Shown here piece by piece: positions 1-50,938 of a DNA stretch of 64,000 bases. The notes beneath the pieces were generated by a model. It was not told the DNA's origin. It did not search any database and worked only from the letters and a program-made list of their open reading frames with translations. Location of the stretch: positions 17,856,001 to 17,920,000 of the forward strand of contig NC_086097.1 in assembly GCF_963921235.1 (NCBI RefSeq), in the 5' to 3' direction. The number at the start of each line of letters is the position of its first letter. Position 1 is the stretch's first letter. Both the position numbers and the translations under genes were made by a program. Source of the DNA: Mobula hypostoma (lineage: Eukaryota).

Positions 1-1236
1 TAAGCCCTTTGTCCTCCTCTGCTGAACTCTGAATTTCTCCCAGTCCTCAGGTGAGCCACTTTCTCTGGCTAATTTGTATGCTACTTCTTTGGAATTGATA
101 CTATCCCTAATTTCTCTTGTCAGCCACGGGTGCACTACCTTCCTTGATTTATTCTTTTGCCAAACTGGGATGAACAATTGTTGTAGTTCATCCATGCAAC
201 CTTTAAATGCTTGCCATTGCATATCCACCGTCAATCCTTTAAGTGTCATTTGCCAGTCTATCTTAGCTAATTCACGTCTCATACCTTCAAAGTTACCCCT
301 CTTTAAGTTCAGAACCTTTGTTTCTGAATTAACTATGTCACTCTCCATATTAATGAAGAATTCCACCATATTATGGTCACTCTTATCCAAGGGGCCTCTC
401 ACGACAAGATCGCTAATTAACCCTTCCTCATTGCTCAAAACCCAGTCCAGAATAGCCTGCTCTCTAGTTGGTTCCTCGACATGTTGGTTCAAAAAACCAT
501 CCCGCATACATTCCAAGAAATCCTCTTCCTCAGCACCTTTACCAATTTGGTTCACCCAGTCTACATGTAGATTGAAGTCACCCATTATAACTGCTGTTCC
601 TTTATTGCACACATTTCTAATTTCCTGTTTAATACCATCTCCGACCTCACTACTACTGTTAGGTGGCCTGTACACAACTCCCACCAGCGTCTTCTGCCCC
701 TTAGTGTTACGCAGCTCTACCCATATTGATTCCACATCTTCCCGGCTTATGTCCTTCCTTTCTATTGCGTTAATCTCTTTTTTAACCAGCAACGCCACCC
801 CACCTCCCCTTCTTTCATGTCTATCCCTCCTGAATATTGAATATCCCTGAACGTTGAGCTCCCATCCCTGGTCACCCTGGAGCCATGTCTCTGTGATCCC
901 AACTATATCATAATCATTAATAACAATCTGCACTTTCATTTCATCCACCTTATTACGAATGCTCCTTGCATTGACACATAAAGCCTTCAGGCGCTCTTTT
1001 ACAACTCTCTTAGCCCTTGTACAATTACGTTGAAAAGTGGCCCTTTTTAATGCTTGCCCTGGATTTGTCGGCCTGCCACTTTTACTTTTCTCCTTTGTAC
1101 TTTTTGCTTCTTCGCTCACTTTACACCCCTCTGTCTCTCTGCACTGGTTCCCATCCCTCTGTTGTGAACTAACCTCCTCACGCCTAGCCTCTTTAATTTG
1201 ATTCCCACCCCGCAACCATTCTAGTTTAAAGTCACC
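1..1236 (-). CDS. CR1 ORF2 N-terminal part (linker plus APE endonuclease), open to the window edge
   Basis: Manual translation gives LCVNARSIRNK, GITETWL, RDR-GGGVA, VYRPP, MGDFN, LDWVL and SDH motifs. The frame opens after a TGA at 1237-1239; the first in-frame ATG is at 939. It is absent from the ORF track, probably because it has no stop inside the window. Confidence 0.88.
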
Positions 1237-2156
1237 TCAGTAGCCCCCGCTAATCTCCCTGCCAGGATATTGGTCCCCCTAGGATTCAAGTGTAACCCGT
1301 CCTTTTTGTACAGGTCACGCCTGCGCCAAAAGAGGTCCCAATGATCCAAAAACTTGAATCCCTGCCCCCTGCTCCAATCCCTCAGCCACGCATTTATCCT
1401 CCACCTCATCGCATTCCTACTCTCACTGTCGCGTGGCACAGGCAGTAATCCCGAGATTACTACCTTTGCGGTCCATTTTCTCAACTCCCTTCCTAGCTCC
1501 CTATATTCTCCTTTCAGGACCTCATCCCTTTTCCTACCTATGTCATTGGTACCTATATGTACCACGACCTCTGGCTCCTCACCCTCCCACTTCAGGATAT
1601 CTTGGACACGATCAGAAATATCCTGGACCCTGGCACCAGGGAGGCAAACTACCATCCGGGTCTCTGGACTGCGTCCACAAAATCGCCTATCTGACCCCCT
1701 TACTATCGAGTCCCCTATCACAACTGCCCTCCTCTTCCTTGCCCTACCCTTCTGAGCTACAGGGCCAGACTCTGTGCCGGAGGCACGGCCACTGTCGCTT
1801 CCCCCGGGTAAGCTGTCCCCCCCAACAGTACTCAAACAGGAGTACCTGTTGTTAAGGGGCACAGCCACCGGGGTACTCCCCATCACCTGACTTTTCCCCT
1901 TCCCCCTCCTAACCGTGACCCACTTGTCTGCCTCCCGTGGCCCCGGCGTGACCACCTGCCTTCCACTCCTCTCTATCACTTCCTCGCTCTCCCTGACCAG
2001 ACGAAGGTCATCGAGCTGCAGCTCCAGTTCCGTAACGCGGTCCCTTAGGAACTGCACCTCGATGCACTTGGCGCAGATGTAGACGTCCGGGAGGCTTGGA
2101 GACTCCAGGGCCTCCCACATCCGACACCGAGAACAGCAAACTGCCCTCACACTCAT
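1221..2156 (-). CDS. CR1 ORF1 protein (311 aa from ATG): zinc finger, leucine zipper and SGNH esterase
   Basis: CxxC-x16-CxxC (CSRC...CAKC), heptad Leu run, and SGNH blocks GDSIVRG, HIGTND and DGLHLN. Confidence 0.9.
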   Translation of the reverse strand: MSVRAVCCSRCRMWEALESPSLPDVYICAKCIEVQFLRDRVTELELQLDDLRLVRESEEVIERSGRQVVTPGPREADKWVTVRRGKGKSQVMGSTPVAVPLNNRYSCLSTVGGDSLPGGSDSGRASGTESGPVAQKGRARKRRAVVIGDSIVRGSDRRFCGRSPETRMVVCLPGARVQDISDRVQDILKWEGEEPEVVVHIGTNDIGRKRDEVLKGEYRELGRELRKWTAKVVISGLLPVPRDSESRNAMRWRINAWLRDWSRGQGFKFLDHWDLFWRRRDLYKKDGLHLNPRGTNILAGRLAGATEVTLN

Positions 2157-2319
2157 AATGCCCCTCTCCTCAAATAGCAACAGAAAATGAATGCCAAACC
2201 TTCCTCGCCTCGCCCGCTTCCGCCTAAGCCCGGTGAGCCGAAGCCCTTAAGTCTTCACTCTGCTCCCGGCTCACTCCGCCGCCCGCAAACTACGCTGCCC
2301 GCTCTATGAGGCTTTGTTT

Positions 2320-2557
2320 CTTTTAAATCTGCCGCGCTGCACTGCCCGATGTCACTCGCCTGCGCAGTCCCGCCTCTCAGAAAGCCGTTGGAGGAAAAAA
2401 AATAACGAAAATTTCAAAAATCTCTTTCTCGGCACTCCCACTCAGACTCTCAGACTCCTTCTTCGAATCAAACCCGAAGCAGGATGTCTGCCCTTTTAAA
2501 TCTGCCGCGCTGCACTGCCCGACGTCACACGCCTGCGCAGTCCCGCCTCTCAGAAAG
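2320..2557 (-). promoter_or_regulatory. Two 65-bp direct repeats in the CR1 5' UTR; putative internal promoter monomers
   Basis: 2320-2384 and 2493-2557 differ at 2 positions. On the minus strand each has GGCGGGA, TGCGCAGGCG, TGAC(G/A)TC and ATTTAAAA motifs. Confidence 0.6.
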
Positions 2558-3000
2558 AATATATCTAGGATATATTAAATAACAGGTGCATGGAAAGTGC
2601 ACAACTCAAAGAATGTCAAGCTCATAACCTATAAAACAACAGAAAATAAAATTTGAAAAAAGAAGACCTGCAAGGTTTTACATTTTATTTCTCTGTAACG
2701 CATTCAACAAAATTTTGTCCCAGGCTGCTTAAGGCAATAGCCTTCCCATTTTGCCACCAGGAATGTAGGTTCAATCTAAGATCTGGTGCTATTTATCTCT
2801 GTTCTTACTTTAAATCTATTATTCCCCAAAAGAGTAAATTCAGGCATAGCCTAACACTTTGGCAGTTTTCTTTAATTGTAATCCTCATAGTATGCACTGA
2901 TGACCCTACACCTACCATGCAGCATCACACAAGCAACTTAGTACGGGCAAAATCACTGAGGATCTGCAAGGGATTTAGAACATCTAAAAGTATATTTCAT

Positions 3001-34229: not shown

Positions 34230-37200
34230 ACTAGTCACTGGCAGCCAACCAGAAAAGGCCCCTTTTATTCCCACTCACTGCCTCCTGCTTGTCAACTATT
34301 CCTCTATTCCTCTATACATGCCAGTATATTTCCTGTAACGCCACAGGATTTTATCTTGTTAAGCAGCCTCATGTGTGGCACCTTATCAAGTGCCTTTTGA
34401 AAATCCAGGTAAATGACATCCACTGCCTCTCCTTTGTCTGCCCTCGAAAAACTAACAGATTTATCAGGCAAGATTTTCCTTTACAGAAACCATGCTGACT
34501 TTGACTTATTTTATCATTAGTCTCCAAGTATCCCGAAACCTCAACCTTGAGAATAGACTTCAATACTTTCCCAAACATTGAGGTTAGACTAACTGGCCTA
34601 TAATTTCCTTTCTTTTGCCTTCCTCCCTTAAAGAGTGGAATGACATTTGCAATTCTCCAGTCCTCCGGGACCATGCCGGAATCAAGTGATTCTTGAAAGA
34701 TCATGACCAATGCAACTGTTATCTCTTCAGCAACTTCTGTCAGGACTCTGGAATGTAGTCCATCTGCTCCAAGTGATTTATCCACCTTAAGGCCTTTGAG
34801 TTTGCCTAGCACTTTTTCCTTTATAATAGTAACGGCACTCAATCCTGCTCCCTGACACTCATGGACCTCTGGCACACTGCCAATGTCTTCCACAGTGAAG
34901 GCTGATGCAAAGTACCCATTAGGTTCATCTTCCATTTTGGTGTCCCCCAATACTACCTCACCAGCATCATTTTCCAATGGTTCAATATCAACTCTCACCT
35001 CCCTTTTACTCTTTATATAACTGGAAAAAAAAACATTTAGTATTTTTGTTTTATATTATTGGCTAGTTTGCCTCATATTTCATTTTTTCCCTTTCAGAAA
35101 GCTTTTTTAGTTGACTTTTGTTGGATATTAAAAACTTCCCAATCATCCAACTTCCCACTCACTTTTGCTACATTATATGCTCCTTCCTTGGGTTTTACTT
35201 GCCTTGTCTGCCATGATTGCCTACTTCTTCTGTCAGACATATCTGTCCTGCACCTTGTGAATAATTCTCAGAAACTTCAGCTACCTCTGCTCTGCCATCA
35301 GCCCCACCAGTATCCTCCTCCAATCCACCTGGGCAAGCTCCTCTCTCATGCCTCTGTAATTCCCTTTATTCCATTGTGACAGTGATGCATCTGACTTGTG
35401 CTTCTCCCTCTAAAATTGCAATATGAATTCAATCATACTATGGTCACTGCCTCCTAAAGGTACTGTACCTTTATGTTCAGCTCCTTAATAAGATCTGGGT
35501 TATTACACAACACCCAAGCTAAGATGGCCTTTCCCCTAGTAAGCTCAAGCTGAAACTGCTCTAAAAAGCCATCTAGTAGGCATTCAACAAATTCCCTGTC
35601 TTGTAATCTGACACAAACTTGATTTTCCCAATCCCCTTGCATATTGAAGTCCCCCATTTCGATTGTGACATTACCTTTATTACATGCCTTTTCTAGCTCC
35701 CTTTGCAATCTCAACCCCACATCTTGGCTACTATTTGGAGGCCTATATATGATTCCCATAAACTTTCTGTTACCCTTGCAGTTTATTCCCATATTGTTTT
35801 TCTTTACCTATACAGCTTCTTAACTCCACTCACAAAGATTCAACATTCTCTGACCCTATGTCATCTCTTTTTAAAGATGTAATTCCATCTCTTACCAACA
35901 GAGCCACATCACTTTTCGTGATTTTTATTAACGACCTGGATGTGGGGGTAGAAGGGTGGGTTGGCAAGTTTGCAGACGACACAAAGGGTTGGTGGTGTTG
36001 TAGATAGTGTAGATGATTGTCAAAGATTGCAGAGAGACATTGATAGGATGCAGAAGTGGGCTGAGAAGTGGCAGATGGAGTTCAACCTGGAGAAGTGTGA
36101 GGTGGTACACTTTGGAAGGACAAACTCCAAGGCAGAGTACAAAGTAAATGGCAGGATACTTGGTAGTGTGGAGGAGCAGAGGGATCTTGGGGCACATGTC
36201 CACAGATCCCTGAAAGTTGCCTCACAGGTGGATAAGGTAGTTAAGAAAGCTTATGGGGTGTTAGCTTTCATAAGTCGAGGGATAGAGTTTAAGAGTCACG
36301 ATGTAATGATGCAGCTCTATAAAACTCTGGTTAGGCCACACTTGGAGTACTGTGTCCAGTTCTGGTCACCTCACTATAGGAAGGATGTGGAGGCATTGGA
36401 AAGGGTACAGAGGAGATTTACCAGGATGCTACCTGGTTTAGAAAGTATGCATTATGATCAGAGATTAAGGGAGCTAGGACTCTATTCTTTGGAGAGAAGG
36501 AGGATGAGAGGAGACATAGAGGTGTACAAGATAATAAGAGGAATAGATAGAGTGGATAGCCAGCGCCTCTTCCCCAGGGCACCACTGCTCAATACAAGAG
36601 GACATGGCTTTAAGGTAAGGGGTGGGAAGGTCAAGGGGGATATTAGAGGAAGGTTTTTTACGCAGAGAGTGGTTGGTGCGTGGAATGCACTGCCTGAGTC
36701 AGTGGTGGAGGCAGATGCACTAGTGAAGTTTAAGAGACTACTAGACAGGTATATGGAGGAATTTAAGGTGGGGGCTTATATGGGAGGCAGTGTTTGAGGG
36801 TTGGCATTGTGGGCCTAAGGGCCTATACTATGCTGTACTATTCTATGTTCTATGTTCTATCACCGCCTATGCCTTCCTGCCTGTTCTTCCAATTGAAAGT
36901 TTATCTATGGCCGCCTTTCAGCCACGACTCAGTGACTTCCACAACGTCATACCGACCAATCTCTAATTGCGCAACGTGTTTGTCCACCGTATTCTGAATA
37001 CTAAGCACATTTAAGTACAGCACCTTCAGCCTGCATTCTTCATCCTTTTGAATTTTGCCTCTGTGGTACACCGTAACTCTTTGCTCTGTCTGCGTTTGTA
37101 CCCAGTCATTGGCTTGCCTTACATTCATGTTTCACCCATCATCTCCTTGTAAACCTGCTGGCTCATCCTTATCTTTATCATACTGCTTCCCAACCCCTAC

Positions 37201-38420
37201 CATATTAGTTTAAATCACTCCCTACAGCTCTAGTAAACCTGTCTGAGAGAATATTGGTACCCCTCAGATTCAAGTACAACCCATCCCTTTTGTACAGGTA
37301 CAAATGCACATTGCACGTTTAGACAGGGAAATAACGTAAAGATCTTTACTCCTCATGTTTGTGAAGGATGTAAGAAATAGTCAATTCAATTTATCTGTCC
37401 CAGAAGAGTTTCCAATTATCCAGAAATCTGAATCTCTGCCCCCCTGCTCCAATTCTTCAGCCATGCATTTATCTGCCACCTCATTCTATTCCTATCCTCA
37501 CTGTTGTGTGGCGCAGGCAGCAATCCCGAGATTACTACCCTTAAGGTCCTGCTTCTCTGCCTCTTTCCTAAATTCCTGTATTCTGTTTTCTGAACCTCCT
37601 TCCTTTTTCTAACTAGGCCATTGGGACCAATATGTACCACAACCTCTGGCGACTCACCCTCCCTTTGCAGGATATTTTGGACACGTTCAGAAACATGGAA
37701 ACTGGAACCTGAGAGGGAAACTACCATCCATGTTTTTTTTCACGTCCACAGAATGGCCTATCTGTCCCTCTAACTATAGAGTTCCCTATTACTGCTGCCA
37801 TCTTCTTCAGTTTCCTACCCTTCTGAGCCACAGGGCCAGACACAGTGTCAGAGGCATGGCCGTTGTCGTTGTTTCCTCTAGTTAGGTTGTTCCCCCCAAT
37901 AGTACTCAAATTGGAGTGCTTGTTATTGATGTTCTTCCTTCCCTTTCCTGACAGTCACCCACTTTTCTGCCTCCTATAGCTTTGGGATGACTACCTCCCT
38001 GTAACTCATGTCTGTCACCTCTTCACTGTTCCTAACAAACCTAAGGTCATTGAATTGCAGCTCCAGTTCCTTAATACGGTCCCTAAGGAGCTGCTTCTTG
38101 ACGTACCTGGTGCAGATATGGCCATCAGAGTGGCTGGTAGTCTCCCAGAAATCCCACATCTGACATCCAAAACAGAACACTGGCTCTGTAGATGTAACCC
38201 CTATTCTCTCAAAAGTTAAATAAGAAATAAGGTATGAACCTACCTTCTTACCTTGCCTCCGCCTGTTCTTACTGAAGCCTGTTGAGCTAAAGTCACTCTG
38301 ACTCAGACCACTCCAACAATGATGGCTCCACTAGATGGTACCCCTCGTTTATGGAGACTGGGGTTTTAAAGCTCTTTGCTGGACTTGTGCGGGAACGCTT
38401 CTACTGCGTCTGCACAGTGC
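34230..38420 (-). mobile_element. Older CR1 LINE (second family) with 5' UTR, decayed zinc-finger/esterase ORF1 (about 37205-38180), endonuclease and partial RT
   Basis: CFGCQMW...ICTRY, IGNSIVRG, VVHIGPN, LKVLYLN, YRPPN, MGDFN and NYRPVSLTS remnants. Confidence 0.85.
35913..36858 (+). mobile_element. Young 5'-truncated CR1 (third family) nested in the older CR1
   Basis: 278-aa ORF covering the RT C-terminus, (TTCTATG)n tail, and 5-bp TSD ATCAC at 35908-35912 and 36859-36863. Confidence 0.9.
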
Positions 38421-46468: not shown

Positions 46469-49400
46469 AAATCATTACAAAGAGGTGACATAGGGTCAGA
46501 AGCTGTTGAGTCATTATGGATAAAGCTAAGGAACTTCAAGAGTAAAAAGACCCTGACGGGGATTGTATACAGACCCCCAAACAGTAGTAATGAGGTAGTT
46601 TACAAATTACAATGGGAGATAGAAAATGCATGCCAAAAATGCAATGTTATGATAGTCATGGGTGGGGGGGTGGATTTCAATATGCAGGTAGATTGGGAAA
46701 ATCAGGTTGGTGCTGGGTTCCAGGAGGGAGAATTTCTAGTGTGCCTATGAGATGACTTTTTAGAGCAAATCAAGGTTGAGCCCACGAGGAGATCAGCTGT
46801 TCTGGATTGGGTGTAACGCAATGAACCAGAATTGATTTAAAGTAAAAGAACTCTTAAGGGCAAGTGTTCATAATATGATAAAATTTACCCAAAAATTTGA
46901 GAAGGAGAGGCTAAAGTCAGATGTATCAGTATTACAATGGAGTAAAGGGAATTACAGAGATATGAAAGAGGAACTGGCCAAAATTGACTGGAAAAGAACA
47001 CTGGCAGGGATGACAGCAGAGCGGCAATGGCTGGAATTTCTGGAAGCAATTTGGGATGCTCGGGATACATATATCTCAAAGAGGAAGAAGTATTCTAAAG
47101 GCAAGATGACACAACCGTGTCTCACAAGAGAAGTCAAAGCCAACATTAAAGCCAAAGAGAGGGCATATAATAGAGCAAAAATTACTGGAAGTTAAAGAAT
47201 TGGGAAGCTTTTTAAAAACAACAGAAGGCAACTAAAAAGTCATTAATGTAAAGATAGAAACATAGAAACATAGAGAATAGGTGCAGGAGTAGGCCATTCG
47301 GCCCTTCGAGCCTGCACCGCCATTTATTATGATCATGGCTGATCATCCAACTCAGAACCCAGCCTTCCCTCCATACCCCCTGACCCCTGTAGCCACAAGG
47401 GCCATATCTAACTCCCTCTTAAACATAGCCAATGAACTGGCCTCAACAGTTTGCTGTGGCAGAGAATTCCACAGATTCACCACTCTCTGTGTGAAGAAGT
47501 TTTTCCTAATCTCGGTCCTAAAAGTCTTCCCCTCTATCCTCAAACTGTGACCCCTCGTTCTGGACCTCCCCAACATCGGGAACAATCTTCCCGCATCTAG
47601 CCTGTCCAATCCCTTTAGGATCTTATACGTTTCGATCAGATCCCCCCTCAATCTTCTAAATTCCAACGAGTACAAGCCCAGTTCATCCAGTCTTTCTTCA
47701 TATGAAAGACCTGCCATCCCAGGAATCAATCTGGTGAACCTTCTTTGTAGTCAGATTAGGAGACCAAAACTGCACACAATACTCCAGGTGTGGTCTCACC
47801 AAGGCCTTGTACAACTGCAGTGGTACCTCCCTGCTCCGGTACTCGAATCCTCTCGCTATAAATGCCAGCATACCGTTCGCTTTTTTCACCGCCTGCTGTA
47901 CCTGCATGCCCACTTTCAATGACTGGTGTATAATGACACCCTGGTCTCGTTGCACCTCCCCTTTTCCTAATCGGCCACCATTCAGATAATAATCTGTTTT
48001 CCTATTTTTGCCACCAAAGTGGATAACTTCACATTTATCCACATTAAATTGCATCTGCCATGAGTTTGCCCACTCACCCAACCTATCCAAGTCACCCTGC
48101 ATCCTCTTAGCATCCTCCTCACTGCTAACACTGCCACCCAGCTTTGTGTCATCCGCAAACTTGGAGATGCTGCATTTAATTCCCTCATCCAAGTCATTAA
48201 TATATATTGTAAACAACTGGGGTCCCAGCACTGAGCCTTGCGGTACCCCACTAGTTACCGCCTGCCATTCTGAAAAGGTCCCGTTTATTCCCACTCTTTG
48301 CTTCCTGTCTGCTAACCAATTCTCCACCCACACCAATACCTTACCCCCAATACCGTGTGCTTTAAGTTTGCCCACTAATCTCCTGTGTGGGACCTTGTCA
48401 AAAGCCTTTTGAAAATCCAAATATACCACATCCACTGGTTCTCCCCTATCCACTCTACTAGTTACATCCTCAAAAAATTCTATGAGATTCGTCAGACATG
48501 ATTTTCCTTTCACAAATCCATGCTGACTTTGTCCGATCATTTCACCGCTTTCCAAATGTGCTGTTATCACATCCTTGATAACTGACTCCAGCAGTTTCCC
48601 CACCACCGACGTTAGGCTAACCAGCCTATAATTCCCCGGTTTCTCTCTCCCTCCTTTTTTAAAAAGTGGGGTTACATTAGCCACCCTCCATCCTCAGGAA
48701 CTAGTCCAGAATCTAACGAGTTTTGAAAAATTATCACTAATGCATCCACTATTTCTTGGGCTACTTCCTTAAGCACTCTAGGATGCAGACCATCTGGCCC
48801 TGGGGATTTATCTGCCTTCAATCCCTTCAATTTACCTAACACCACTTCCCTACTAACATGTATTTCACTCAGTTCCTCCATCTCACTGGACCCTCTGTCC
48901 CTTACTATTTCTGGACGATTATTTATGTCCTCCTTAGTGAAGACAGAACCAAAGTAATTATTCAATTGGTCTGCCATGTCCTTGCTCCCCATAATCAATT
49001 CACCTGTTTCTGTCTGCAGGGGACCTACATTTGTCTTTACCAGTCTTTTCCTTTTTACATATCTATAAAAGCTTTTACAGTCCGTTTTTATGTTCTCTGC
49101 CAGTTTTCTCTCATAATCTTTTTTCCCCTTCCTAATTAAGCCCTTTGTCCTCCTCTGCTGAACTCTGAATTTCTCCCAGTCCTCAGGTGAGCCACTTTCT
49201 CTGGCTAATTTGTATGCTACTTCTTTGGAATTGATACTATCCCTAATTTCTCTTGTCAGCCACGGGTGCACTACCTTCCTTGATTTATTCTTTTGCCAAA
49301 CTGGGATGAACAATTGTTGTAGTTCATCCATGCAACCTTTAAATGCTTGCCATTGCATATCCACCGTCAACCCTTTAAGTGTCATTTGCCAGTCTATCTT

Positions 49401-50938
49401 AGCTAATTCACGTCTCATACCTTCAAAGTTACCCCTCTTTAAGTTCAGAACCTTTGTTTCTGAAGTACAAAAGTAAGCTAGCCAATAATATTAAAGAGGA
49501 TACCAAAAGTTTCTTCAGATATATGAAGTGTAAAAGAGAGGCGAGTGGATTTTGAAGTGCTAGAAAACAATGCTGGAGAGGCAGTAATGAGGGACAAACT
49601 GAATAAGAATTTTGCGTCAGTCTTTGCTGTGGAAGACACTGGCAGTGTGGTGGAAGTTCCAGGTGTCATGAAGTGTGTGAAATTACCATTACAAAAGAGA
49701 AGGTTCTTGGGAAACTGTAAGGTCTGAAGGTAGATAAGTCACCTTGACCAGATAGTGTACATCCCAGGCTTTGATGGATGTGGCTGAAGAGATCGTGGAG
49801 ATATTAGTAATGATCTTTCAAGAATCACTAAATTCTGGAATGGTTCCAGAAGATTGGAAAATTGCAAATGTCACTCCACTCTTCAAGAAAGGAGAGAGAC
49901 AAAAGAAAGAAAACTATAGGTTAGTTACAACCAACAAAAATCTACGGATGCTGGAAAGATTCTAGCATAGACAAAGCAGTAGCTGATTGGCAGGAGGCAA
50001 AGAGTGGGAATAAAGGGAGCCTTTTCTAATTGGCTGCCAGTGACTATTGGTGTTCTACAGGGTTCTATGTTGGGACCAATTCTTCTAATGTTATATGTCA
50101 ATTATTTGGATGATGGATTTAATGGCTTTGTTGCAAAGTTTTCAAACAATATAAAAATAGGTGGAGGGGCAGGTAGTTTAGAGAAAGTAGAAAGGCTACA
50201 AAAGAACGTAGATTGGGAGAAAGGGCAAAGAAATGGCAGATGGAATATGGTATCGGGAAGGGTATGGTTATGCACTTTGGTAGAAGAAATGGAAGGGTTG
50301 ACTGTTTTCTAAATGGAGAGAAAATACAAAAATACAAAAAACTGAGGTGCAAAAGGACTTGAGAGTCCTTGGTTAGGATTCGCTAAAGGAAAATTTGCAG
50401 GTTGAGTATGTGGTGAGGTAGGCAAATGCGATGTTAGCATTCATTTCAAGGACTAGAATATAAAAGCAACAATGTAATATTGAGAATTTATAAAGCACTA
50501 GTGAGGGCTAACTTGGAGTGTCGTGAGCAGTTTGGAGCCCCTTAGCTTAGAAAGGATGTCCTGAAACTGGAGAGGGTTGAAAAGAGGTTCATGAAAATAA
50601 TTCCAGGATTGAATGGCTTGTTAGATGAAGAACATTTGGTGGCTCTGGGCTTGTTTTCACTAGAATTCAGAAGAATGAGTGGTAACATGATTGAAACCTA
50701 TCGAATGGAGAAAGGCCTAGATAGAATGGATATGAAGGATATGATTCCTATGGTGGGAGAGTCTAAGACCAGAGGTCACAGCCTCAGTATAGAGGGGTGT
50801 CCTTTTGGAATGGAGATGAGGATCTTTTTTAAACAGAAAGTTGTGAATCTGTGGAATTTTTGCCATAGGCAGCTGTGGAAGCCAAGACTTTATGTATATT
50901 TAAGGCAGAGGTTGATAGGTTCTTGATTGGTCAGAACA
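46469..50938 (+). mobile_element. Degenerate CR1 ORF2, split by a family A insertion
   Basis: Endonuclease remnants at 46469-47254 resume at 49465 and run through the RT. Confidence 0.82.
47255..49464 (-). mobile_element. CR1 family A, 5'-truncated young copy with nearly intact RT
   Basis: ORFs 48672..49418, 47698..48684 and 47352..47729 (two frameshifts); [24 protein letters not shown] and KFADD motifs; (TTCTATGT)n tail. Confidence 0.93.

Follow-up and report, generated by a model that had tools for sequence, protein, structure and literature searches.

A stretch of 64,000 nucleotides from the genome of the ray Mobula hypostoma (contig NC_086097.1, positions 17,856,001 to 17,920,000; hereafter the window) carries, on the minus strand of its first 2557 nucleotides, the 5′ half of a long interspersed nuclear element (LINE) of the CR1 group. 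The two open reading frames (ORFs) of this element, an esterase-encoding ORF1 and an ORF2 encoding endonuclease and reverse transcriptase (RT), meet at a slippery heptamer, U_UUA_AAC, at which programmed −1 ribosomal frameshifting very probably gives an esterase–linker–endonuclease–RT fusion. Frameshifting between the two ORFs had been proposed in a preliminary description of this one copy, and the comparison of copies and lineages reported here supports that proposal. Judged from this comparison, the junction appears to hold a real, deeply conserved recoding signal, similar to retroviral Gag-Pol frameshifting but placed in an element without long terminal repeats (non-LTR) and without a structured stimulator.

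At the end of ORF1, the heptamer is read acU UUA AAC, in the X_XXY_YYZ phase, with the stop codon directly next to it. The −1 frame opens at position 1236, reads TTT AAA CTA across the heptamer, and has no stop in the 412 codons up to the edge of the window, overlapping ORF1 by 16 nucleotides, stop included. Because a TGA at 1239–1237 closes the −1 frame, entry into ORF2 is confined to positions 1236–1221; a −1-frame stop 1–5 codons upstream of the heptamer was likewise found in 11 of 16 representatives. The coordinates and phase of the heptamer, the −1 position of ORF2, the length of the overlap, and the upstream stop were all given correctly in the preliminary description, as was the AUG just past the ORF1 stop, which is out of frame and closes after eight codons. 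The charged linker that follows differs in length and sequence between lineages and could not be aligned, endonuclease motif I being located 39–110 codons past the heptamer.

The same description had placed the first AUG of ORF2 at position 939, after the NARS residues of motif I. This is true of the window copy and not of its family: the base in question is A in one of 30 near-identical copies and T in the other 29, and contigs from three public runs carry the second of these at essentially all depth. Of the 29 copies scored, 26 have their first in-frame AUG at codon 215 (the others: 180, 185, and, in the window copy, 97), and the window family has none upstream of NARS. An AUG there in the family consensus was one of the results that the preliminary description had named as speaking against it. 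Initiation at codon 215 would remove most of the endonuclease, because this AUG adjoins the GDFN motif. With the frame closed two codons upstream of the heptamer and free of AUG for 215 codons in most copies, the −1 window at the heptamer is thus the only entry into ORF2. The residues expected after the shift also differ from the earlier prediction. LEWLR had been predicted, while base 1212 is G in 28 of 30 copies and C in two, including the window copy, so the family junction peptide is LEWLGGG. Contigs of four runs showed no indel or splice-like joint at the junction among the rows listed; their RNA origin is not established, and they were not used as evidence on expression or splicing.

Queries for the search of the genome were an older CR1 copy, located in the window at 37.2 kb, and three diverged ORF1 proteins, and 40 junctions were scored at the projected ORF1 ends. 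For two queries these were the top-ranked matches reaching near the C-terminus, and for the rest they were spread across frame lengths. All 30 young copies have the exact heptamer, a count that is uninformative since these are ~99% identical. An older family has it unchanged in 24 of 30 copies, and four of the six exceptions have only the last base changed, to A or T. Of the 40 further junctions, 29 have it exact and in place, with two more displaced by nearby indels. Eight of the nine misses belong to the decayed family A, four of them with indels over the site. In every ray lineage the −1 frame starts with FKL and arrives at endonuclease motif I 49–110 codons on, and lineages Y, D, D2, E, and G have no in-frame AUG before endonuclease motif I. 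Within the window itself, TTTAAAC followed by a stop occurs at only two of 21 TTTAAAC sites, the young junction and the older one.

Beyond rays, the ORF1 protein ends in Leu-Asn (LN) in 68 of the 72 scoreable tails (120 listed), from rays, sharks, coelacanth, frogs, turtles, lizards, and snakes. A scan of metagenome contigs, which contain host DNA, yielded 51 loci, of which 23 match the C-terminal profile and 14, of amniote type, reach the end of ORF1; for most amniote-type loci the nearest cluster is one with a turkey protein among its members. Eight of the 14 carry GCT TTA AAC exactly in place (L062, L065, L068, L070, L071, L076, L085, and L094), seven of these with the stop directly next, and in L070 and L071 the −1 frame is open from the heptamer into the endonuclease. 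The other six have substitutions (L063, L079, L084) or are shifted by indels (L069, L078, L093). Three further profile matches were set aside as esterases that do not look like LINE proteins. TTTAAAC followed by a stop also stands at the matching place in published consensuses (PMC13343379 supplement) from alligator, crocodile, bullfrog, elephant shark, coelacanth, bearded dragon, stingray, sawfish, catshark, and dogfish, as well as in a Crack element from a fish; this motif search records presence only, with no denominator, and the others among its 23 matches lie elsewhere in their elements.

To separate protein from nucleotide constraint, 14 representatives were compared, nine ray lineages and five amniote-type loci chosen for an intact end, the last 60 residues of which are 21–80% identical. 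All 14 have NNT TTA AAC and a stop. The first codon varies (ACT, GGT, GCT, GAT), and the base before TTA is T in 14 of 14 although this codon encodes Thr, Gly, Ala, or Asp. A control Leu in the DGLHL motif (at −22, ~20 codons upstream, residue invariant) is encoded by CTG in 11 representatives, TTG in three, and TTA in none; in this region TTA makes up 10% of Leu codons, and AAC accounts for 34 of 89 Asn codons. Over the last 26 positions, codons for the same residue are identical in 118 of 331 ray versus amniote-type comparisons. By this codon usage the heptamer is conserved at the nucleotide level beyond the need of the protein. The preliminary description had named loss of the heptamer at synonymous positions as a result that would speak against it, and the opposite was found across these divergent tails. 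Of the junction features it proposed to compare, heptamer and phase are kept across lineages and the missing AUG is not universal.

A profile search of cluster representatives at 50% identity extended the comparison to distant lineages. It listed 150 proteins, of which 103 contain DxxH and 94 a tail of 20–45 residues; the profile included LN- and GN-ending sequences and may slightly favour them in ranking. At the protein level, 43 of the 94 tails end in LN, 12 in Gly-Asn (GN), and three in Lys-Asn (KN); grouped by identity into 59 sets, the numbers are 23, 10, and one. A tripeptide compatible with X_XXY_YYZ stands at the terminus in 58 of 94 tails, versus 2–11 at every one of the 11 offsets upstream. 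Before GN the residue is Gln in nine of 12 cases and before LN in none of 43, the pattern required by G_GGA_AAC and U_UUA_AAC, and residues without a T-ending codon precede LN in one of 43 tails and stand one position earlier in 12 of 43. Eleven further tails carry KN internally at this same position; in every case the residue before it has an A-ending codon, and the tail beyond it varies. LN, GN, and KN may therefore be read as zero-frame translations of U_UUA_AAC, G_GGA_AAC, and A_AAA_AAC, an assignment made from protein ends only. These are three of the four heptamers given as shiftiest on mammalian ribosomes in a section of the recoding review PMC5009743. A weak search for long fused forms of the GN/KN group found none. 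A search of the Mobula hypostoma genome for a G_GGA_AAC lineage, with P0112 as the query, gave weak matches only (129–141 bits), partly at places already listed; scans of viral contigs gave nothing usable, and a scan of prokaryote genomes gave two uninformative loci.

Downstream of the heptamer, a G-rich motif is the candidate stimulator, a feature absent from the preliminary description. Across 19 junctions (10 ray and 9 amniote-type), in all of which the stop directly follows the heptamer, G occupies +11 to +14 in 19 of 19, +15 in 17, and +18 to +20 in 16–17, and no other column between +4 and +40 exceeds 15 of 19. Position +11 is the third base of −1-frame codon 6, which encodes Arg, Gln, Lys, Leu, or Met and always has G there; codon 7 is GGG in all 19, though GGG makes up 31–38% of Gly codons in two ORF2s. 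Because the third base of codon 6 and the GGG of codon 7 are fixed at synonymous positions, the constraint lies on the RNA, and the motif at +11 would be the likely frameshift stimulator. The heptamer is of the coronavirus type, as the preliminary description stated; the coronavirus-type pseudoknot or a conserved stable hairpin 5–9 nucleotides downstream was not found by local folding, in which pseudoknots were not modelled explicitly. Rfam gave no matches in window positions 1–3000. The minimum-energy fold computed with ViennaRNA includes a G-quadruplex in eight of the 19 junctions, and with only two G-runs conserved this would be at best a weak two-tier quadruplex. A strict search of the sense strand of two longer copies, with G–U partners left out, found no C-rich partner (CCC-N1-2-CCCC).

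We propose that ribosomes would translate ORF1 from its 5′ end and that most would terminate right after U_UUA_AAC, releasing the ORF1 protein (ORF1p). In a minority, tRNA-Leu and tRNA-Asn on UUA AAC would slip back in tandem to UUU AAA, and these ribosomes would read CUA next and go on through the linker, endonuclease, and RT, producing a Gag-Pol-like fusion of ORF1p and the ORF2 protein (ORF2p) at a fixed low ratio, with ...VTLN followed by LEWLGGG... at the joint. The pause would probably come from the adjacent stop codon together with the G-rich element at +11, which lacks a conserved Watson–Crick fold and could be a G-quadruplex, a protein-binding site, or one side of a long-range pairing. 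It is from sequence that we infer the shift, its efficiency, the fusion protein, and the action of the G-rich motif.

Several observations weigh against this proposal. The lineages are related, so counts over representatives are not counts of independent events, stark as the contrast with the control Leu is, and in the oldest ray family only four of 12 copies have the heptamer exact and in place. Among the distant tails, 36 of 94 have no slippery-compatible terminal tripeptide (11 of these have the internal KN). No conserved fold was found downstream of the heptamer, z being −0.5, −0.7, and −1.0 in the window copy and −1.0 to +1.9 across the folded junctions. An in-frame AUG precedes motif I in ray families A, B, C, and F and in amniote-type loci L070 and L071; its position, where present, is scattered from codon 3 to 38, with no start position conserved. 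In family B (L126–L133) the heptamer is followed by UAAUG with the AUG in the ORF2 frame, which is the SART1 signal, and locus L085 likewise combines the slippery site with a TAATG stop-start in one junction. No such coupling is present in the window copy, where the AUG after the stop is out of frame. Finally, CR1 lineages without ORF1 are described in part of PMC13343379, so ORF2p can work unfused.

These last points are also what favours termination–reinitiation in the manner of L1 and SART1, whereby ribosomes would restart in the −1 frame at an AUG or non-AUG codon and release a free ORF2p, the conserved bases being a signal or relic. Besides the UAAUG of family B, which SART1 uses according to passages of PMC3708506, and the ORF1-less elements, it can point to an AUG at codon 3–4 in L085, L071, and L094 and to the account of L1 ORF2 initiation as AUG-independent in a section of PMC5009743. 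It leaves unexplained, however, why a perfect in-phase slippery heptamer precedes the stop, why the protein signature switches to GN or KN in distant lineages, and why KN is retained in one lineage whose stop lies as much as ~14 codons beyond it; moreover, no start codon position is conserved, and five ray lineages have no AUG before motif I. We consider reinitiation as the general explanation improbable, while in family B it could coexist with frameshifting. A stop-driven slip of a single tRNA, in which the ribosome pauses while AAC occupies the P site and the stop occupies the A site, and only tRNA-Asn re-pairs on AAA, would still be a −1 shift, though without tandem slippage. It would suit the stop adjoining the heptamer in all 19 junctions and the lack of a strong conserved structure, and in pea enation mosaic virus a stop close to where the shift occurs is of importance, as stated in a section of PMC5009743. 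Such a slip would free the first T and the TTA codon to vary, yet both are invariant, and the internal-KN lineage has no adjacent stop, which makes this variant very unlikely.

Routes at the RNA level, either joining through splicing or slippage of the polymerase, or an internal promoter giving ORF2 its own transcript, could draw on the resemblance of CUAG to a splice acceptor and of TTTAAA to a TATA variant, and on AldAff_Crack-2, a consensus labelled Crack in which the heptamer is kept without the G motif. The stop is TAA or TGA in many lineages, leaving no invariant AG for an acceptor; a downstream transcript would have no AUG before the endonuclease in five lineages; and no long homopolymer occurs at the junction. 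The splice-acceptor and internal-promoter readings were rejected on these grounds, and we hold this whole class of explanations to be highly improbable. As for protein constraint with shared ancestry, under which ORF1p needs a C-terminal Leu-Asn and the codons were inherited by chance, all lineages are indeed related and LN is conserved at the protein level. Nearby synonymous sites have nevertheless largely diverged, TTA never encodes the control Leu, T fills the free third base ahead of TTA across four amino acids, and ORF2 would be left without a start; the codon comparison has already largely refuted this explanation, and its probability is close to negligible. Programmed −1 frameshifting accordingly stays the strongly preferred reading of the junction.

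Features of the CR1 element and its older relative in the window (positions of the window; all on the minus strand).
Feature	Position	Strand	Remarks
5′ untranslated region (UTR)	2157..2557	−	Similarity to sister copies begins at 2557–2558 in 11 of 12 copies matching here (29 compared)
65-nucleotide direct repeat in the 5′ UTR	2557–2493 and 2384–2320	−	97% identical (self-BLAST)
ORF1, 311 residues	1221..2156	−	C-terminus ...EVTLN-stop; Cys-rich N-terminus and SGNH esterase domain (~1721–1275)
TGA closing the −1 frame	1237..1239	−	Precedes the heptamer by two codons; all 30 young copies have it
ORF2 (−1 frame)	1..1236	−	Apurinic/apyrimidinic endonuclease (APE); motif I NARS at 972–961; Pfam match ~924–373
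Slippery heptamer U_UUA_AAC	1224..1230	−	ORF1 codons acU UUA AAC; −1 frame UUU AAA C
ORF1 stop	1221..1223	−	Adjoins the heptamer on its 3′ side; UAG in this copy, elsewhere UAA or UGA
Out-of-frame AUG (1219) and 8-codon mini-ORF	1193..1219	−	Third frame, not that of ORF2
G-rich motif GGGGG-N(1-2)-GGG, candidate stimulator	1204..1213	−	Starts at +11; window copy has the minority C at 1212
Charged linker, ~80 codons	991..1223	−	−1 frame, from shift site to endonuclease; no AUG
AUG private to the window copy	937..939	−	Family reads UUG (Leu); 97 codons past the heptamer, after NARS (codon 86)
First in-frame ORF2 AUG in most family copies	583..585	−	Codon 215, just before the endonuclease GDFN motif
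Older, decayed CR1 junction T TTA AAC TAA	37205..37214	−	73% identical over ORF1

By its domains and ends, the element is classified as a young CR1 LINE of the esterase type. ORF1 matches Lipase_GDSL_2 (PF13472, E 7.5e-16), an SGNH esterase, and is 96% identical to an annotated Mobula hypostoma protein; ORF2 matches Exo_endo_phos (PF03372, E 4.4e-12) and leaves the window at its edge in the direction of the RT. In the sister copy L171, PF03372 is followed by the RT domain PF00078, and the 3′ end consists of a short 3′ UTR and a (TTCTATGT)2 octamer tail, which we take to be a CR1-type tail, with no poly(A) and no LTR. ORF2 of the window family is ~90% identical to that of ray family B, whose junction text matches the published consensus ScyCan_CR1-1a, labelled LINE/CR1. 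CR1 LINEs with an esterase ORF1 form CR1 subgroup 7, ORF1 type IVB (Metcalfe and Casane 2014). The family is young, since the 40 junction matches scored, including the window copy, are 99–100% identical (of 857 first-look candidates).

A second piece of the same young family, a 331-nucleotide fragment 99.4% identical to window positions 1–331, lies at 49137–49467 on the minus strand, and more ORF2 fragments occur near 35.1–35.9, 46.5–47.2, and 50.9–51.7 kb. The older copy (36900–38250, minus strand) has stops and indels in ORF1 and an insertion near 37300–37400, and its TTTAAAC TAA junction is intact. The window family also looks chimeric. Compared with L172 of family B over positions 2200–1, ORF1 is 59–83% identical per 100 nucleotides, and identity rises to 87–96% from ~1200 downward; ORF1 and junction thus appear, from this profile, to come from one lineage and ORF2 from another, with the joint just 3′ of the shift site. 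Neither of the two linker AUGs of family B is present in the window family.

Several other records were noted at the junction. In L148, L149, P0037, P0132, P0317, and P0321, an indel at or just before the heptamer shifts the ORF1 reading, and P0037, P0132, P0317, and P0321 are single records in frame from ORF1 to ORF2 that cross at the junction point, which counts in favour of the proposed shift; some such copies appear as genes in host annotations. P0319 and P0320 are permuted single frames, endonuclease–RT followed by the esterase and ending in ...RYLN, an order as expected where tandem copies fuse ORF2 to the ORF1 of the next copy. P0020 and P0086, CR1 ORF1 proteins of vertebrate type that are catalogued under Pseudomonas aeruginosa and a parasite of frogs, are probably host contamination. 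In the PMC13343379 supplement, SquAca_CR1-3 and CR1-18 have TTTAAAC and a stop, then GGGAAAC, in the 5′ UTR, upstream of the apparent ORF1 start. AldAff_Crack-2, from a fish, has an esterase-like ORF1 end with TTTAAAC TAG and no G-run at +11, hinting that the heptamer may travel with ORF1 across ORF2 clades.

No proposal of frameshifting in CR1 was found in a full-text literature search on CR1 and LINE ORF2 expression, a check that the preliminary description had called for and that did not cover the primary papers of 1997–2006. An early passing suggestion in the papers that first described CR1 (Haas 1997, Kajikawa 1997, Kapitonov and Jurka 2003) or in Repbase Reports is rather unlikely, though its chance is not small. 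In a term search, 'frameshift' had no occurrences in the searched main texts of PMC13343379, PMC4120745, PMC3905857, PMC3708506, and PMC11303007, and in the searched parts of PMC4255032, PMC9004415, and PMC11835228 it referred only to decay, alignment, or avian leukosis virus. 'CR1' does not occur in the searched part of the recoding review PMC5009743, where the non-LTR cases are HeT-A, TART, and L1. Translation of the second ORF of LINEs is an acknowledged open question, for which the available passages of reviews give only reinitiation (L1, SART1) or 2A skipping.

CR1 is described in part of PMC13343379 as the dominant retrotransposon group of most vertebrates. If the proposed shift holds true, it would give this group a conserved, retrovirus-like expression strategy that sets the ratio of ORF1p to ORF2p, a membrane-binding esterase would be tethered to the RT, and CR1 ORF2 annotations that start from the first AUG would be wrong at the N-terminus. 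The junction also supplies, from nature, a candidate stimulator of frameshifting that is either non-structured or a G-quadruplex, and testing would be cheap, young family copies being abundant in the genome. A wider hypothesis, which we put forward tentatively and regard as possible but doubtful, is that esterase-type CR1s from sharks to birds, together with the distant lineages, all make a Gag-Pol-like fusion via interchangeable heptamers, with the structure-free G element at +11 serving in vertebrates as a switch occupied by a protein (a host G-tract binder or ORF1p) or formed as a G-quadruplex. Were this so, it would be a genome-resident counterpart of arterivirus trans-activated frameshifting that predates the shark–tetrapod split, and it would offer host or element a means of tuning retrotransposition.

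Among known systems, L1 and SART1 resemble the CR1 element in having a bicistronic LINE RNA, on which ORF2 expression depends on ORF1 translation (parts of PMC2881922 and PMC3708506), and the UAAUG of SART1 recurs in ray family B. Reinitiation is the mechanism given for both in a passage of PMC2881922. Unlike the product proposed here, they yield a separate ORF2p, and no slippery heptamer is described for them in the relevant sections of PMC2881922 and PMC3708506. The one non-LTR element with a cited frameshift requirement in the section of PMC5009743 concerned is Drosophila HeT-A; unlike in CR1, the shift of this telomeric element lies inside gag, and HeT-A has no RT. In protein architecture the window element is like other esterase-ORF1 CR1 LINEs, with a zinc-finger-like N-terminus and SGNH esterase in ORF1 and APE–RT in ORF2.

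The junction itself is closest in layout to Gag-Pol (avian leukosis virus gag-pol, PEG10) and coronavirus ORF1a/1b, with which it shares the in-phase X_XXY_YYZ at the end of an upstream structural ORF and an enzyme ORF in the −1 frame without a start of its own. A stop directly after the heptamer is the layout of Rous sarcoma virus. U_UUA_AAC is the site of infectious bronchitis virus (IBV) according to a section of PMC5009743. Unlike these systems, CR1 offers a non-LTR host, an esterase ORF1 with no protease seen, and a junction where folding showed no conserved pseudoknot or hairpin 5–9 nucleotides downstream; this places it outside the coronavirus/retrovirus pseudoknot class. G-quadruplexes stimulate −1 frameshifting in synthetic constructs (part of PMC3919603), which the G-tracts downstream of the CR1 slippery site resemble, and natural use of a G-quadruplex for access to a new frame was not known according to a passage of the 2016 review PMC5009743. 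In the arterivirus PRRSV, the shift in nonstructural protein (nsp) 2 is trans-activated by nsp1beta and a poly(C)-binding protein, with the motif to which they bind, CCCANCUCC, lying 3′ of where the shift occurs, at a distance of 11 nucleotides (section of PMC5009743). The CR1 motif differs in being G-rich and in having no known binding protein, and the likeness is one of layout only: in both, a short linear motif at a fixed distance, beginning in CR1 at +11, stands in place of a structure.

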